Shown in pieces: positions 1 to 38,073 of a DNA stretch of 38,073 nt. The stretch lies in IMG/VR virus record IMGVR_UViG_3300037510_000107. One strand, written 5' to 3'. Under the pieces are notes generated by a model that saw only the letters and a program-made list of their open reading frames with translations, had not been told where the DNA came from and made no database searches. Positions within the stretch are counted from its first letter, which is position 1; every line of letters begins with the position of its first letter. The position numbers and the translations under genes were made by a program. The DNA is from a virus.

Positions 1-127
1 TGGAATACCTGGATTAGAAGCGTGATAGATCATCATAGCAGCATGTGGCGTGCTTGTCGCCTTCTCAAGTTCGTAACCTAATTTTCCAGCAAGGTGAACT
101 ACCCAACCTGCACGGCAATGTGTTGTT
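1..127. repeat. Terminal direct repeat, copy 1 (circular-contig overlap)
   Basis: nt 1..127 (tggaatacctggattagaag...gcaatgtgttgtt) are identical to 37947..38073. A minus-strand ORF is continuous across the implied junction. Confidence 0.95.
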
Positions 128-249
128 CCACAGGATGAGTGCCATTGCCCCATATCAAGAGCTTCGGGCGGAACTGTTGCGGCCTCAAATACCTTTTGAT
201 GGATGTTTTCGATGACAGGGACATTCGCCAGAATATTGTTATTGTTCAT
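1..249 (-). CDS. 5' part of a junction-spanning CDS: small Cys/His-containing conserved-looking phage protein (112 aa if started at ATG 249)
   Basis: ATG at 249..247. My translation is MNNNNILANVPVIENIHQKVFEAATVPPEALDMGQWHSSCGTTHCRAGWVVHLAGKLGYELEKATSTPHAAMMIYHASNPGIP, running to nt 1 with no stop. It continues in frame at 37946 and ends at TAG 37859..37857. Confidence 0.8.
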   Translation of the reverse strand, partial: MNNNNILANVPVIENIHQKVFEAATVPPEALDMGQWHSSCGTTHCRAGWVVHLAGKLGYELEKATSTPHAAMMIYHASNPGIP

Positions 250-708
250 TTCGCCGGTTTGAACTGGTGATGCAGTGCGTAAGTCAAAGCAGCCAGAGCA
301 GCGAGAGCAGCCAGAGCAGTCAAAGCAGCGAGAGCAGCGAAAGCAGTCAGAGCAGCGAAAGCAGTCAGAGCAGCGAGAGCAGCCAGAGCAGCCAGAGCAG
401 TCAAAGCAGCGAGAGCAGCGAAAGCAGTCAGAGCAGTCAGAGCAGCGAAAGCAGTCAGAGCAGTCAGAGCAGCGAAAGCAGTCAGAGCAGCGAGAGCAGC
501 CAGAGCAGTCAGAGCAGTCAGAGCAGCGAAAGCAGTCAGAGCAGCGAGAGCAGCCAGAGCAGCCAGAGCAGTCAAAGCAGCCATCATTCGTTTCGTTGTC
601 CTTCTCGAAATCAGGATGAGTTTTAGCGAATTTTTCAGAGACGCCGTTAAGGCTTTTATCTTCTCGGTTTAGAAACGCGGAGTAAGATTCGAATATTAGA
701 GTTTTCAC
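1..708 (-). CDS. Alternative extended model: 265-aa protein starting at GTG 708 with 33 C-(S/F)-(G/D/R) repeats fused in frame to the junction-spanning domain
   Basis: GTG at 708 lies 6 nt after the RHH stop (717..715). The frame reads VKTLIFESYSAFLNREDKSLNGVSEKFAKTHPDFEKDNETNDG, then CFDCSGCSGCSRCSDCFRC..., then LRTASPVQTGE, and runs without a stop into ATG 249. The ORF track omits it because it has no stop inside the window. Mutually exclusive with 246..587. Confidence 0.4.
   Translation of the reverse strand, partial: MKTLIFESYSAFLNREDKSLNGVSEKFAKTHPDFEKDNETNDGCFDCSGCSGCSRCSDCFRCSDCSDCSGCSRCSDCFRCSDCSDCFRCSDCSDCFRCSRCFDCSGCSGCSRCSDCFRCSDCFRCSRCFDCSGCSRCSGCFDLRTASPVQTGEMNNNNILANVPVIENIHQKVFEAATVPPEALDMGQWHSSCGTTHCRAGWVVHLAGKLGYELEKATSTPHAAMMIYHASNPGIP
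246..587 (-). CDS. Alternative model: 113-aa (A/T)-A-(L/F) triplet-repeat protein
   Basis: ORF-track ORF starting ATG-ATG at 587. Its TGA (248..246) overlaps ATG 249 as ATGA. It would leave 127 nt (588..714) untranslated upstream, which is atypical for this genome. The ORF may exist only because of the repeat periodicity. Confidence 0.3.
   Translation of the reverse strand: MMAALTALAALAALAALTAFAALTALTALAALAALTAFAALTALTAFAALTALTAFAALAALTALAALAALAALTAFAALTAFAALAALTALAALAALAALTYALHHQFKPAK
283..579. repeat. Tandem array of 33 x 9 bp (consensus GYSARAGCA)
   Basis: Head-to-tail 9-mers of only five types: GTCAAAGCA, GCCAGAGCA, GCGAGAGCA, GCGAAAGCA, GTCAGAGCA. There are no spacers. A degenerate 34th unit follows at 580. 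Confidence 0.97.
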
Positions 709-714
709 GATTAT

Positions 715-867
715 TTAGGGGGTTACTTTTTTCTTCTTAGACACCTTTGATAATCTCTTGTCGGCGTAATCATTTATCGACACGCCAGCCGCTTCCGCCT
801 CTCTCCTTACATTCTCTATCGTGCTTTCTCGGATGCGGTAGGTCACGTATTTCTTTTTCTCTTTCAT
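715..867 (-). CDS. Ribbon-helix-helix (Arc/CopG-like) DNA-binding protein, 50 aa (not in ORF track)
   Basis: My translation is MKEKKKYVTYRIRESTIENVRREAEAAGVSINDYADKRLSKVSKKKKVTP. The basic N-terminus, beta-strand (VTYRI) and two helices fit the RHH pattern. Confidence 0.6.
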   Translation of the reverse strand: MKEKKKYVTYRIRESTIENVRREAEAAGVSINDYADKRLSKVSKKKKVTP

Positions 868-881
868 CGATTCGAAGTACT

Positions 882-899
882 AAAATTGAAATCAATTTT
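882..899. promoter_or_regulatory. Inverted repeat AAAATTG-N4-CAATTTT upstream of the RHH gene (candidate operator)
   Basis: aaaattgaaatcaatttt has perfect 7-bp arms and lies 15-32 nt upstream of ATG 867. Confidence 0.3.
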
Positions 900-925
900 G
901 CAATAGTTGGCTGTATTTATTTTTG

Positions 926-1074
926 TGCGAACGGGAGGACTCGAACCTCCACCCTTGTTTTTACGCTATGGGCACCGTTTTTCAACGATGTAGATCTTTC
1001 GATCAAAAAGGACCATAGGGGCACTGTTTCTGCGTAAGTCCCCATTATGCGGCTACCATTTACGCCACGTTCGC
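926..1074 (-). tRNA. Atypical 149-nt tRNA-like gene: class-II-like 5' end and canonical T arm with about 60 nt of extra internal sequence. Anticodon undetermined; may be interrupted or degenerate.
   Basis: The minus-strand RNA has GCGAACG (1-7) pairing perfectly with CGTTCGC (142-148) plus discriminator A. The D arm is TG-GCG-TAAATGGTAGC-CGC, resembling Leu/Ser/Tyr-type tRNAs. The T arm is GGAGG-TTCGAGT-CCTCC directly abutting the acceptor. No CCA is encoded. Confidence 0.5.
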
Positions 1075-1080
1075 GGTGAA

Positions 1081-1437
1081 TTATTTTTGCTGTTTCTGTT
1101 CTGCTCCCAATTTTATGACGAAATACTTAACGCCCGGCTCTGCGCCCCATTCATATCTACCAGCCCAGATAACGATATCCTTAACTTTGAAGCTGATTGT
1201 CGGTGCATTCTTTGAATACCCGTTTTTGAATGTTACTTGATCGAAGTGTTTTGCGGTTTCCATACCATATTTTATTCCATCCAATTCCCACGATTCATCT
1301 TCCCGCGGATTTAGTTCTATCTGGTCAACCAATCTAGCGGCCCAATAATATTTTAACTCTCGATACTCTTCGGTCTTCTCTCCAGAAGCGATCATGTCAA
1401 ACCATTTTCTTTTCAGTGTGAGGTGTAGTGTTTTCAT
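1081..1437 (-). CDS. ASCH (PUA-like) domain protein
   Basis: The N-terminus LTLKRKWFDMIASGEKTEEYRE matches the ASCH signature as I recall it. 118 aa. Confidence 0.55.
   Translation of the reverse strand: MKTLHLTLKRKWFDMIASGEKTEEYRELKYYWAARLVDQIELNPREDESWELDGIKYGMETAKHFDQVTFKNGYSKNAPTISFKVKDIVIWAGRYEWGAEPGVKYFVIKLGAEQKQQK
1091..1103 (-). repeat. 13-nt motif CAGAACAGAAACA (minus strand), copy 1
   Basis: tgtttctgttctg on the plus strand. It encodes the C-terminal EQKQ of the ASCH protein. Confidence 0.9.
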
Positions 1438-1904
1438 GGTTGTTTCTGTTCTGCTAATTGTAATTCCTCGCCAGTGAGCGCGAAGTATAGGTTTTGAAGC
1501 TGGTGGACGTATTTACAAGGAATTGTGCAAGTTTGAAGTTCAGGGTAATCATGATCTGCGCGCTCGCTGATTAAATCCATCCAACCTTCACCATCCCAAT
1601 ATTTTCTTCCTATGGCCACAACTATGAATGTTCTGCAAGCCCATTTAATTAATGGAGATATAGCTATTCTGAATGAATCAAAATCCCTGTTCTTTTCAAA
1701 CCCGAAATTCTTTAGCCACTCTTCGGTGAGCGGGATTTCGGAATACATTTCAGGAATGCCACCTCTTGACCATTTCTCATCGTTCGGATCTCGCTCATAG
1801 TCTTCCATCAATGCAATGGTATGGGCGTCTACGATTTTTTCAGTCACGAAATCTTCGTGAAGAACATGAATGATGTTTCCAACTCTGAATTCACTTGATT
1901 TCAT
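1434..1904 (-). CDS. Hypothetical protein (start taken at MKSSEFRVGN)
   Basis: The ORF-track ORF runs to 2000, but ATG 1904 limits overlap with the upstream gene to 14 nt. Ends ...LAEQKQP. Confidence 0.6.
   Translation of the reverse strand: MKSSEFRVGNIIHVLHEDFVTEKIVDAHTIALMEDYERDPNDEKWSRGGIPEMYSEIPLTEEWLKNFGFEKNRDFDSFRIAISPLIKWACRTFIVVAIGRKYWDGEGWMDLISERADHDYPELQTCTIPCKYVHQLQNLYFALTGEELQLAEQKQP
1441..1453 (-). repeat. 13-nt motif CAGAACAGAAACA, copy 2
   Basis: Identical 13-mer, 3 nt upstream of ATG 1437, read in the same frame (EQKQ). Confidence 0.9.
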
Positions 1905-2088
1905 TCTGCAATAATTTAATTGTGCGCTTATAGGCTTTGATAAACTTATCTGCTTTCTTTTTGTTCTCAACATCTGAATTAGCAGGATCACCTGATGCAA
2001 TCACATTTGCAGAATGCTCACTCATCAAGTGACATATCTCGTATGCGGCGTAAAGTGCCTCTACATCGAACGGAATCTTTGCTTTCAT
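1891..2088 (-). CDS. Hypothetical protein, 65 aa
   Basis: Complete ORF in operon context. Confidence 0.55.
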   Translation of the reverse strand: MKAKIPFDVEALYAAYEICHLMSEHSANVIASGDPANSDVENKKKADKFIKAYKRTIKLLQNEIK

Positions 2089-2094
2089 ATTCTG

Positions 2095-2832
2095 TTATTG
2101 TTTCTGTTCTGATGCGTCCCGGTTCTCTACTTGCTCTACTTTTTCAGGGAGCTTGCCAGCCACTTGTTTGTAATATTTCGCGGCATCCGCTGCGGATGGA
2201 GCGTATATCTCTAAGCCGTCGCAAACGAATAATCTCGGAGTTTTACCAAATCGGCGATGCATCTCTTGTTTATTGAACTCCTGTATCTTATCGTACTTCG
2301 CTGTTTCATTGGCCATCTTAGCATAAATGTCCTTCATGTTATCGATAGGCTCCTTATCGTTGGCGCTCAGTTTCTTTTGCTCTATGGCATTCTCTAACTC
2401 GGTGTATTTTTCCTCCATGTACTTGGTCATCCAAACTCCGATAGTGATTCCGTCCATGCGTTGTATCTCTCCGTATCGCCCCATAGCCCCACGTTGCAAA
2501 CACAAACGAAAGTCGGCTATCGATTCGGTTGGGTATAGTTCAATCAGGTTATCCGAGATCATATCGATCATAGCGTCGTTTAGGTTGCCTCCCGTGACCA
2601 TGATTGACGCCAGGATTCCCAACTGGAATTCTACCATCGCTTTTACAGGAGCCATGCCTACAGCCTTTATTTGCTCCCTGACCTTAGGCTGCGCGTATAC
2701 CTCCCTGAATGTTTTAGGGAGTAGTTTTGTAGCTTCACTGAACTTGCCCTGAGCCATTAGCTGCGTTGAAGCGTCTTGTGATACCCTCTGCAATGCTGTT
2801 GAGATCTGCGCCTTTTGAATTTTGTCTTCCAT
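2095..2832 (-). CDS. Hypothetical replication-module protein (start uncertain; alternative ATG 2757)
   Basis: 245-aa ORF downstream of the DUF4373-like gene. Ends ...ASEQKQ. Confidence 0.6.
   Translation of the reverse strand: MEDKIQKAQISTALQRVSQDASTQLMAQGKFSEATKLLPKTFREVYAQPKVREQIKAVGMAPVKAMVEFQLGILASIMVTGGNLNDAMIDMISDNLIELYPTESIADFRLCLQRGAMGRYGEIQRMDGITIGVWMTKYMEEKYTELENAIEQKKLSANDKEPIDNMKDIYAKMANETAKYDKIQEFNKQEMHRRFGKTPRLFVCDGLEIYAPSAADAAKYYKQVAGKLPEKVEQVENRDASEQKQ
2099..2111 (-). repeat. 13-nt motif CAGAACAGAAACA, copy 3
   Basis: Identical 13-mer, 10 nt upstream of ATG 2088, read in the same frame (EQKQ). Confidence 0.9.
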
Positions 2833-3514
2833 TGACTTTTACTATTTCGTTATTCCAAGATTCGTTGTTGAGGTATGTTAGTGGGTTCTTTCGGTATTGA
2901 ACATCCGGCGTTGTTTCGACGTACCGCGGGACGTGATCCATAATTTTTTCGCGCGCCCCCTGTGAAATTTTTATCCATTTTTTTTCACACTTGGGTCTAT
3001 CAACTTTTTTACCGTATGCTTCCCAGAAATCATCGAAAGTAGGCCAGACCAATAACTCAGCGTCAGCGGCAGTATTTACTTTACTTTCCTTTTCTTTCTT
3101 TTCCTTTTCTTTACTTTCTTTTATAGCATTGCTATCGCTATGCGTTGGCGATGCGTTCGCATCCATTTTTCTGCGTTTCCAGCCTTCTATGGCACTTTCT
3201 CTAGCCTTGCCACTTTTCTGATTCCTCAGATCGATCCGTTTCAAGCACGATTCGCTCCAAAATTTTTGTCCATCGTTCCGAAACAACTCGTAATTGATCA
3301 CCACTCGCTTCACTTTTTCTACTTTCACTCTGAGGTCAAACGCTATGCGTTCGCAATCCAAAAGCATAGCGAACCCACCCTCTTCGTAAAGCAATTCCAC
3401 GATACACCAGTATATGCCGACGCCCTCCATACCTTCTTTCATGCGGAGTGCTACCATCTTGGTATCGTTCCTGGAATTAAAGTCGTGCGAAAAATAAGGA
3501 GATTCGACGGCCAT
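2735..3514 (-). CDS. DUF4373 (Lin1244/Lin1753-like) replication-associated protein
   Basis: The N-terminus YFSHDFNSRNDTKMVALRMKEGMEGVGIYWCIVELLYEE matches my memory of DUF4373. A Lys/Glu-rich linker follows, then a Trp-rich C-terminal domain (WPTFDDFWEAYGKK...YLNNESWNNE). Confidence 0.6.
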   Translation of the reverse strand: MAVESPYFSHDFNSRNDTKMVALRMKEGMEGVGIYWCIVELLYEEGGFAMLLDCERIAFDLRVKVEKVKRVVINYELFRNDGQKFWSESCLKRIDLRNQKSGKARESAIEGWKRRKMDANASPTHSDSNAIKESKEKEKKEKESKVNTAADAELLVWPTFDDFWEAYGKKVDRPKCEKKWIKISQGAREKIMDHVPRYVETTPDVQYRKNPLTYLNNESWNNEIVKVNGRQNSKGADLNSIAEGITRRFNAANGSGQVQ

Positions 3515-3835
3515 CTAGTGAATCTCTCCGGTTTCAACAAACTTTTGAAGGATTGGCAGTATTTCTGCAACCTGTTCACGCGATAAGTGCATACGTGAAC
3601 TCAATAGTACTTCATCAGGGATCGGATATTTAATCCAACCTACTTTTTCTGTTGTTTCAATCCCAAGCTTTGCGGCATCTGAGGCCATTATTTGAGGCTC
3701 AACATCATTTATACCGAGCCAGATACAATCATCTGTAGCAAGGCTTGATATCTGAATAGAGCAAATCTTGTCGTAGTAGTCTACGAATTCCACCAATGGA
3801 AAATTACGACTCGTCTTAGAATGATATAGGCTCAT
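3515..3835 (-). CDS. Hypothetical protein, 106 aa
   Basis: Complete ORF. Its stop abuts the next start codon. Confidence 0.6.
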   Translation of the reverse strand: MSLYHSKTSRNFPLVEFVDYYDKICSIQISSLATDDCIWLGINDVEPQIMASDAAKLGIETTEKVGWIKYPIPDEVLLSSRMHLSREQVAEILPILQKFVETGEIH

Positions 3836-37856: not shown

Positions 37857-38073
37857 CTATTTAGTTTGATTCTTTTCGAGTTCTGCGCAACGCTTCATGT
37901 CTTCAATCGCTTCCTCTTTGTTCTCATAAAAACGAACGGATGACACTGGAATACCTGGATTAGAAGCGTGATAGATCATCATAGCAGCATGTGGCGTGCT
38001 TGTCGCCTTCTCAAGTTCGTAACCTAATTTTCCAGCAAGGTGAACTACCCAACCTGCACGGCAATGTGTTGTT
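37857..38073 (-). CDS. 3' part of the same junction-spanning CDS (37947..38073 duplicates 1..127)
   Basis: Reading down from 37946 gives VSSVRFYENKEEAIEDMKRCAELEKNQTK then TAG (37859..37857). This is 4 nt upstream of the next ATG at 37853. Confidence 0.8.
   Translation of the reverse strand, partial: TTHCRAGWVVHLAGKLGYELEKATSTPHAAMMIYHASNPGIPVSSVRFYENKEEAIEDMKRCAELEKNQTK
37947..38073. repeat. Terminal direct repeat, copy 2 (duplicate of 1..127)
   Basis: Exact 127-nt duplicate of the window start. 127 is a common maximal assembler k-mer, so this is most simply an overlap artefact of a circular or circularly permuted genome. Confidence 0.95.

Follow-up and report, generated by a model that had tools for sequence, protein, structure and literature searches.

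A 33-copy 9-bp tandem array encodes the Cys-X-X repeat within a single 265-aa phage gene

In the 38,073-nt viral sequence IMGVR_UViG_3300037510_000107 (all of it hereafter called the window) we found that an array of 33 tandem 9-bp units forms the middle of a single phage gene on the minus strand, encoding a protein of 265 aa. We regard it as highly probable that this is one coding gene whose array is subject to concerted evolution and whose product would be an early protein carrying a rod stapled by thiolates or metal.

A single gene across the array

The two ends of the window duplicate each other (positions 1..127 equal 37947..38073), and the 265-aa open reading frame was read after this 127-nt terminal overlap had been taken out. 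The coding sequence starts with a GTG at 708, passes through the array and ATG 249, crosses the circular junction and ends at 37857, with its first 708 nt, including the start codon, at 1..708 and its last 90 nt, including the stop codon (37857..37859), at 37857..37946. The initial annotation had placed this start six nt past the stop of a gene for a ribbon-helix-helix (RHH) protein, the 50-aa ORF at 715..867 on the minus strand, and had noted that the ORF at ATG 249 continues it in the same frame, for a total of 265 aa over the junction; both points were confirmed, the latter once the terminal overlap was removed. Hundreds of homologues that extend over the full length lend strong support to its model of a 43-aa N-terminus followed by 33 copies of C-(S/F)-(G/D/R). 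A database search at E<=1e-3 returned 823 homologues with lengths of 173-313 aa, the best of which covered 97-100% of the 265 aa, and methionine 1 of these proteins (e.g. MKTLIF, MKTQIF) aligned with the GTG at 708.

Three parts and a variable linker can be distinguished in the protein, all encoded on the minus strand. The N-domain (aa 1-43, VKTLIFESYSAFLNREDKSLNGVSEKFAKTHPDFEKDNETNDG, positions 580..708) is supported by an AF2 model and the homologue alignment. It is followed by the array (aa 44-142, positions 283..579) and by the linker (aa 143-163, LRTASPVQTGEMNNNNILANV, positions 220..282), inside which lies ATG 249, where gene callers begin a separate 112-aa ORF. The first part of the helical C-domain (aa 164-236, positions 1..219), supported by phrog_31265 and the AF2 model, carries the motif W-H-x-C-x-T-T-H-C-R-A-G-W. 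This gene model predicts a product of about 29 kDa with a peptide across ...TGEMNNNNILANVPVIENIHQK, peptides like (M)KTLIFESYSAFLNR, and a peptide (TASPVQTGEMNNNNILANVPVIENIHQK) that spans the supposed gene boundary.

An alternative would be that the ATG 587 ORF (246..587, minus strand), which encodes Ala-Ala-Leu 33 times in frame +1 of the 265-aa gene, is expressed, either in place of the 265-aa gene or overlapping with it, and that ATG 249 begins a second gene of 112 aa. This ORF of 113 aa exists as first described, with an ATG start and a stop that overlaps ATG 249 as ATGA; it was picked by the JGI gene caller, and GenBank annotates an equivalent alternative-frame ORF in Flavobacterium phage FL-1. 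However, the triplets in frame +1 of the array (GCT-NTN-RCT) are unable to make a stop, and the Ala-Ala-Leu frame is therefore open by codon construction. The encoded peptide is not conserved, being AAL here, APT in two related loci (L004 and L015), IAPV in phage FL-1 and elsewhere also AAP, and these replacements come from changes that are synonymous in the Cys frame. ATG 587 itself is a by-product of AAT GAT GGC, which in the real frame encodes the conserved residues N-D-G, and a start there leaves 127 nt upstream unused, even though they encode a domain conserved across phyla. Stops in the Ala-Ala-Leu frame, which had been named beforehand as fatal to this model, were present in relatives L005 and L013. 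The comparative data thus contradict the ATG 587 ORF as the gene, and we consider it extremely improbable that it is expressed in this way.

The JGI contig of this phage and the FL-1 record share the same error, in that the gene was split into a wrong-frame low-complexity ORF and a C-terminal fragment. The FL-1 locus (KY421186.2, 26455..27271) shows the same three-part architecture with 62% identity over the aligned parts, but its record contains a frameshift, and two unrelated ORFs are annotated there, of which one uses the wrong frame. Given these two cases, some catalogued ORFs of the C-domain only, or of low complexity, may be mis-split as well.

Units, copy number and evolution of the array

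The array was confirmed exactly as the initial annotation had described it, namely as 33 uninterrupted head-to-tail 9-mers of five types at 283..579, with variation at three unit positions, which are positions 2, 3 and 5 only. On the gene strand the unit reads TGC-T[C/T]T-[G/C][A/G]C. The five types are GTCAGAGCA (10 copies), GCCAGAGCA (7), GCGAGAGCA (6), GCGAAAGCA (6) and GTCAAAGCA (4), and the encoded triplets are CSD (10), CSG (7), CSR (6), CFR (6) and CFD (4). TRF scored the array at 402 and 354. When the window was scanned with a degenerate two-unit pattern, all 32 matches fell within the array, with 0.07 expected by chance. Five of the six frames are open across the array, as had been noted: all three on the plus strand, and frames 0 and +1 on the gene strand, whereas frame +2 has 14 stops.

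A copy number of 33, taken from short-read assembly, is plausible. It is unlikely, though less so than the other alternatives considered here, that the array is real while its assembly is wrong in the number or order of units. This phage is also present in three Logan assemblies (k=31) that match the window at 100% identity and all end 28 bp into the array (window position 552), and the widely different repeat numbers of proteins with identical flanks may in part reflect collapse of short-read arrays. The longest exact repeat within the array, however, is a 69-bp block present twice, 19 units apart. This is shorter than the k-mer of 127 nt that we infer from the terminal overlap, so that an assembly at k=127 would be able to span the array. 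In addition, a second JGI contig of different length (38,015 nt) has an alternative-frame ORF of identical length (113 aa) at the same site, with the same 127-nt gap.

The near-perfect 9-bp periodicity shows the pattern of concerted evolution. Among 24 arrays, within-array variation was 2-7% at wobble positions and 26-33% at position 2 of the X1 codon and positions 1-2 of the X2 codon. The wobble bases differed between arrays (TGC/TGT, TCT/TCC/TCG, GAC/GAT) with the residues kept; synonymous codons of the Cys frame were thus uniform inside one array and different between phages, and the pattern C-S/F/Y-D/G/R/N was preserved across phages. The number of units ranged from 4 to 36 in homologous proteins and reached 64 in related phage loci, and pairs with identical flanks (100%) differed in their units (31 vs 8, 22 vs 14 and 21 vs 11). 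As a mechanism, slippage or unequal recombination, acting on single 9-bp units and on blocks of several units, is the most likely homogenizing route. The array of every phage is homogenized to its own synonymous codons. Repeat number drifts fast, over a range from 4 to 64, and does so also where two proteins have identical flanks. Selection retains Cys as the first residue of the unit, S/F/Y as the second and D/G/R/N as the third. In-frame indels were considered as coding evidence and this argument was dropped, because any change by 9-bp units stays in frame automatically. With regard to mutagenesis of the diversity-generating retroelement (DGR) type, no reverse transcriptase was seen in those genes of the window that had Pfam calls or had been scanned.

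RHH proteins are able to bind short direct repeats, and the initial annotation had also considered that the array could be non-coding and bound by the adjacent RHH protein in the manner of omega or ParG. Such sites, which might also be coding at the same time, could for example act as an operator or a centromere. A probable RHH gene does lie directly upstream, and its 50-aa product had weak matches only (HicB, E 0.006; CopG_antitoxin, E 0.0069; Arc-like PHROGs, E 0.003). However, this RHH or Arc-like protein is a neighbour in this phage only, with no RHH homologue beside the gene in any related locus, and a neighbour that is not conserved lends no support to a role of the array as DNA. Outside the array the window does not contain the motif again, neither upstream of the RHH gene nor in any other place. 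The repeats are also not kept as DNA, as array sequences diverge between phages at synonymous sites whereas the encoded residues are conserved, and the array sits in frame within a conserved protein. The proposal was thus left unsupported, and we consider such a binding array, like expression of the Ala-Ala-Leu frame, to be extremely improbable.

A large phage protein family and its resemblance to other Cys-rich repeats

The window protein is a new member of a catalogued phage family that comprises phrog_31265 (E 2.6e-30 over aa 160-262) and phrog_15341 (E 9.2e-18), of which it carries the C-domain motif, the Cys-X-X run and the N-domain. These PHROGs have profile lengths of 264 and 276, which match the 265-aa gene, and are without functional annotation. 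An architecture of an approximately 43-aa N-domain, (Cys-X-X)n and an approximately 100-aa helical C-domain with the motif WHxCxTTHCRAGW was common to all homologues, and the motif columns were invariant or at least 90% conserved (alignments A1 and A2). With clustering at 50% identity, about 2,857 clusters matched the family profile. Its members come from phages as well as prophages of Bacteroidota, Proteobacteria, Cyanobacteria, Planctomycetota, Patescibacteria and other groups. The first reading had named no characterised phage element of similar appearance. This remains true of the word characterised, and in the literature library searched no description of the family was found, but the family is large, catalogued in both PHROGs and present in cultured phages. 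A megablast of window positions 1-3000 against cultured phages gave no match, and scans of the window protein and its parts with NCBIfam and with Pfam models that did not include PF27784 gave no significant family.

The Cys-X-X run is in register and uninterrupted over 33 units in the window protein. Across 121 proteins with runs of 4-36 units, X1 was S in 1474 units, and X2 was D in 757, G in 516 and R in 350. The N-domain, which ends in NETNxGC, aligned with homologues from residue 1 and was always followed by (CXX)n; it was 63% identical to the N-terminus of NVP1238A_68 of Vibrio phage 1.238.A. In that phage the N-domain and (CXX)n occur without the C-domain, and in the multi-module proteins P0127, P0167 and P0191 the same pair is repeated as 5-9 tandem modules, with the N-domain occurring 5-9 times. 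The C-domain was found fused to other repeats. In P0216 (E 9.6e-43) and Ralstonia phage RSK1 ORF34 (BAO04699.1) these are Pfam Pentapeptide repeats, and in P0238 they are DUF4116 repeats. In P0216 and RSK1 ORF34 the homologous C-domain (47-54% identity) stands after a repeat region of variable length. Pentapeptide proteins have the unit A(D/N)LXX, a 5-residue period and a right-handed quadrilateral beta-helix, whereas the window repeat has a 3-residue period with an invariant Cys, and the window protein had no Pfam match to PF00805.

The Vibrio phage homologue NVP1238A_68 is annotated as an insect antifreeze protein via IPR016133, and the antifreeze proteins of the Tenebrio type (IPR016133; 1EZG) likewise have a short-period, Cys-rich repeat. 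However, their unit is of 12 residues (TCTxSxxCxxAx) and they are secreted and disulfide-bonded, while the window period is of 3 residues. Membership in this beta-helix family was rejected, as the 1EZG profile match was non-significant (E 3.1). The repeat had also been called metallothionein-like. This holds for its composition (33 Cys in 99 residues, i.e. about one-third) and its CxxC spacing, but no sequence or profile similarity was detected, and the strict 3-residue register, the much greater length and the folded domains on either side set the repeat apart from metallothioneins.

Tandem triplets are also found in heterocycloanthracin and sonorensin (TIGR03601, PF27784), bacteriocin precursors of the TOMM class in which the number of Cys-Xaa-Xaa triplets varies between strains, the N-terminal region is conserved and genes are often called wrongly (Haft 2009, PMC2674419). 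In the phage protein, the N-domain could correspondingly serve as a leader or for recognition, with host enzymes heterocyclising the Cys-X-X core to thiazol(in)es or modifying it in another way. The heterocycloanthracin repeats are of the same Cys-Xaa-Xaa type with variable number (PMC2674419), precomputed PF27784 ('Sonorensin') assignments exist for P0003 and P0085, TIGR03601 matched the P0085 repeat (E 0.0026), and the multi-module proteins with 5-9 copies of N-domain plus core look like multi-core precursors. However, the TIGR03601 match of P0085 scored 18.3 bits against a cut-off of 35 and covered the repeat only, and the window protein had no NCBIfam match. TOMM precursors are of 50-100 aa, end in the repeat, occur in Bacillus and need cyclodehydratase, dehydrogenase and scaffold genes. 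In the phage protein, by contrast, the repeat is internal and followed by a conserved 100-aa domain, and a folded N-domain is predicted. Those genes of the window that had Pfam calls or had been scanned included no cyclodehydratase, dehydrogenase or radical-SAM gene, and none was seen near homologues in a Dyadobacter prophage and a MAG phage contig (L026, L028), and no maturase-type neighbour recurred in approximately 100 loci. The occurrence of the family in phages of many phyla further makes dependence on one host maturase unlikely. We therefore judge a modified-peptide precursor to be very unlikely.

Predicted structure, genomic context and putative function

AF2 predicted the N-domain as strand-helix-strand-helix with a pLDDT of about 90 and the C-domain with a pLDDT above 90. 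In the 265-aa model the repeat had a pLDDT of 30-50, with isolated bridges every third residue in the first approximately 14 units only. Foldseek of this model against the PDB gave nothing at E<=0.001, and against BFVD the sole match was to part of the homologue from FL-1. When PDB sequences were searched with a profile, the matches were Cys-rich and all non-significant (formate dehydrogenase Fe-S, SWIM, CXXC zinc fingers and TmAFP). In 118 arrays, adjacent aromatics were avoided, and a search for higher-order periodicity of X1/X2 and for aromatic or charged spacing found no preferred lag and hence indicated no coil length. The window array is nearly uncharged (-0.06 per unit), and a DNA-mimic role as in pentapeptide proteins is thus not evident.

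We propose that the gene encodes an early protein of host interaction with a rod that is stapled by thiolates or metal. The protein would be cytoplasmic and expressed alongside early, replication or recombination genes. Its (CXX)n segment may form an elongated rod lined with thiolates that carries the conserved C-domain, most plausibly stapled by metal ions (e.g. Zn) via successive CxxC pairs, and would take the same architectural slot as the pentapeptide-repeat beta-helix of the paralogues. A more far-reaching proposal, which we consider rather unlikely, is that (Cys-X-X)n represents a previously undescribed fold, either a solenoid or a polyproline-II-like rod, with a metal-holding column of thiolates and a length tuned by 9-bp slippage, and that it is interchangeable with pentapeptide beta-helices as an early host-targeting or anti-defence arm in phages of many phyla. 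The combination of concerted evolution, diversification at the residue level and exchange with pentapeptide repeats makes the family a tractable target for the discovery of a new repeat fold and of early phage-host interaction.

The gene was located in early or replication modules. It lies between an antirepressor and a sliding clamp plus methylases in the Dyadobacter prophage, and ahead of PD-(D/E)XK, SSB, PolA and primase genes in the MAG phage contig. YqaJ and SSAP genes were recurrent near family loci. Neighbour clustering over approximately 100 loci found no conserved partner gene; recombination genes alone recurred, each in at most 7 loci. As PADLOC also gave no match, the biological role is argued here from gene position and one domain fusion, and host takeover or anti-defence would be a likelier role than virion structure. 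The fusion was found in one multi-module relative that carries an S-AdoMet lyase domain (E 4.7e-11).

The array and its reading frame

Positions 283..579 of the window hold 33 head-to-tail 9-mers without interruption, of five types differing at three unit positions only (TRF scores 402 and 354), and a degenerate two-unit pattern matched 32 times in the window, always within this array, with 0.07 matches expected by chance. All frames but one are open, the 14 stops being confined to gene-strand frame +2. The initial annotation had described the array in these terms and had also placed correctly two overlapping readings on the minus strand: a 265-aa CDS from GTG 708 through ATG 249 and over the circular junction (frame B; its stop is at 37857..37859), and a 113-aa ORF in frame +1 from ATG 587 to an ATGA at 246..249. 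Because 1..127 is identical to 37947..38073 (127-nt terminal overlap), the window represents a circular assembly, which measures 37,946 bp when the overlap is counted once. The 265-aa gene was absent from the window's ORF list because it spans the junction.

A search of protein databases with the 265-aa product gave 823 hits at E<=1e-3; the top hits, with lengths of 173-313 aa, align over 97-100% of it. These homologues share a layout of an N-terminal region of ~43 aa (consensus MKTQIFxSYxxFLxREDKxxNGVSxxFAxxNPxYExxNETNxGC), a Cys-X-X run, a variable linker and a C-domain (PVIENIHQKV...WHTCxTTHCRAGWV...KRCAE), and their Met1 aligns with the GTG start. Since every 9-bp unit change keeps the frame, in-frame indels are uninformative on coding, and the frame test was made on codon-level variation over 24 arrays. 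The three wobble positions were nearly constant inside an array (2-7% minor bases), and position 2 of the second residue and positions 1-2 of the third showed 26-33% variation. Wobble bases were unlike from phage to phage (TGC or TGT, TCT/TCC/TCG, GAC or GAT), yet the residues C-(S/F/Y)-(D/G/R/N) were maintained throughout. This pattern shows that frame B is under purifying selection and that homogenisation has proceeded separately in each array. Given the shared layout and the constraint on residues, we regard it as virtually certain that the array lies in a single 265-aa frame B gene, as one of the proposed models had it; the array is shown to be coding, inside one gene whose protein is modular.

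The 113-aa Ala-Ala-Leu ORF was rejected as a real gene. Its triplets are GCT-NTN-RCT, which admit no stop codon, so its openness is uninformative. The peptide is not conserved, with AAL in the window becoming APT or AAP in the related loci L004 and L015 and IAPV in phage FL-1, and ATG 587 is part of the conserved Asn-Asp-Gly codons (AAT GAT GGC) of frame B. Stops in this frame, on which the initial annotation would have dismissed it, are present in L005 and L013.

Gene callers are misled by frame +1 of these arrays. The JGI contig of the same phage is annotated with a 113-aa and a 112-aa ORF, and Flavobacterium phage FL-1 in GenBank carries an alternative-frame 'IAPVAP' repeat ORF (APZ82901.1) and a C-terminal fragment (APZ82918.1). 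The deposited FL-1 gene (KY421186.2, 26455..27271; 3001..3817 of locus L029) is frameshifted inside the TTHCRAGW motif, either by sequencing error or as a pseudogene. The interest of the locus lies in a large family, an unusual repeat and an annotation error that recurs.

Copy number and array growth

Repeat number ranged from 4 to 36 in the top 120 homologues, with all intermediate values represented, and the viral contigs L014 (3713..4171) and L017 (4007..4582) carry 51 and 64 Cys-X-X units. The L017 architecture is unlike that of the window family, with an N-terminus MKxKEEILKMTKxEL... and a short C-terminus CRNxK...ICNVQxTKEEYE. Protein pairs with 100% identical flanks differed by 31 vs 8, 22 vs 14 and 21 vs 11 units, part of which could be array collapse in short-read assemblies. 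Concerted evolution and changes of copy number are shown for these arrays, and constraint acts on the residues. In the window array a block of 69 bp, made up of 7 units and flanking sequence, is present twice, 19 units apart, which indicates growth by block duplication.

Three independent Logan k=31 assemblies of this phage match the window at 100% identity for as much as 10.9 kb, and all end at position 552, 28 bp into the array, so short-k assemblies systematically break at such arrays. No internal repeat exceeds 69 bp, which is below the 127-nt overlap k-mer, and another JGI contig (38,015 nt) has an alternative-frame ORF of equal length in the same place; therefore the 33 units, although from short-read assembly, are plausible.

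A modular family and the neighbouring RHH-like protein

The product matched phrog_31265 (E 2.6e-30, profile length 264) and phrog_15341 (E 9.2e-18, profile length 276), and a profile run against 1.84 billion representative proteins returned 2,857 clusters at E<=1e-3. The contigs in which homologues occur are assigned to many phyla. The locus thus adds a member to a family already catalogued in PHROGs without functional characterisation; no account of it turned up in full-text literature searches on its motifs and on related terms.

The C-domain was found alone, after Cys-X-X runs, behind Pfam pentapeptide repeats that vary in length (protein P0216, E 9.6e-43; Ralstonia phage RSK1 ORF34 with its relatives) and behind DUF4116 repeats (P0238). 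Vibrio phage 1.238.A NVP1238A_68, annotated 'insect antifreeze protein', has an N-domain 63% identical to the window's and a Cys-X-X run without C-domain. Multi-module proteins of 548-975 aa, P0167 (836 aa), P0127 (975 aa) and P0191 (548 aa), carry 5-9 tandem [N-domain + (CXX)n] modules, and other (CXX)n proteins, at L009, L012, L013, L017, L018 and L021-L024, have different small N- and C-terminal caps. P0167 also has an N-terminal S-AdoMet lyase domain (PF23780, E 4.7e-11), which hints at a link with anti-restriction functions. AF2 gave the N-domain and the helical C-domain, which carries its own HxxCxxxHC cluster, pLDDT ~90 or higher, and the repeat 30-55. Fold searches of PDB and BFVD with the AF2 model matched nothing but the FL-1 fragment, and no sequence relative was found in PDB.

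The array had also been proposed to be DNA bound by an adjacent RHH protein. This 50-aa protein (715..867, minus), whose stop lies 6 nt from GTG 708, has weak RHH/Arc-like matches only: HicB (E 0.006) and CopG_antitoxin (E 0.0069), both under curated Pfam cut-offs, and Arc-like PHROGs (E 0.003). No homologue of it lies beside the gene at any related locus, gene neighbours are generally unconserved, and the window has no further copy of the array motif outside the array. The DNA-array reading found no support.

Possible function and genomic setting

The repeat is a run of CxxC pairs, a spacing that is classic for zinc knuckles. The 265-aa protein has no signal peptide and would therefore be cytoplasmic, with its Cys residues reduced, and in paralogues the repeat slot is filled by a rod-like pentapeptide beta-helix. 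Together these points favour a thiolate-lined, probably metal-stapled rod of tunable length that would present the C-domain, a structural and biochemical reading that we hold tentatively, as rather short of an even chance. For function, the main rival is a RiPP-like substrate. Among characterised systems, heterocycloanthracin and sonorensin come nearest to the repeat with their Cys-Xaa-Xaa core (PMC2674419; PF27784 appears as 'Sonorensin' in PMC13289728). Membership tests for such a substrate failed both on score and on co-occurrence with a maturase: neither a cyclodehydratase nor a radical-SAM gene turned up among those window genes that had Pfam calls or scans, and neither recurs near the homologues.

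The gene is placed in regions of early, replication or recombination genes. Around it in the window, genes with Pfam calls for YqaJ, MerR and Lin1244_N lie upstream, and small genes and then terminase downstream; its place in a Dyadobacter prophage is between an antirepressor and a sliding clamp with methylases, and in a MAG phage contig ahead of genes for PD-(D/E)XK, SSB, PolA and primase. A role in early host takeover or in anti-defence might be envisaged, and we consider it quite possible, if a little less probable than not.

At 926..1074 (minus) there is a tRNA gene that carries an insert of ~70 nt. It was missed by ARAGORN at default settings and by the Rfam gathering run on the whole window; a region scan with permissive filters gave an Rfam tRNA match of 33.9 bits (gathering score 29, E 1e-5). 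With introns allowed, ARAGORN called a tRNA-Met(CAT) of 80 nt plus a 70-nt intron at an unusual position (32/33), and this insert folds into its own hairpins.
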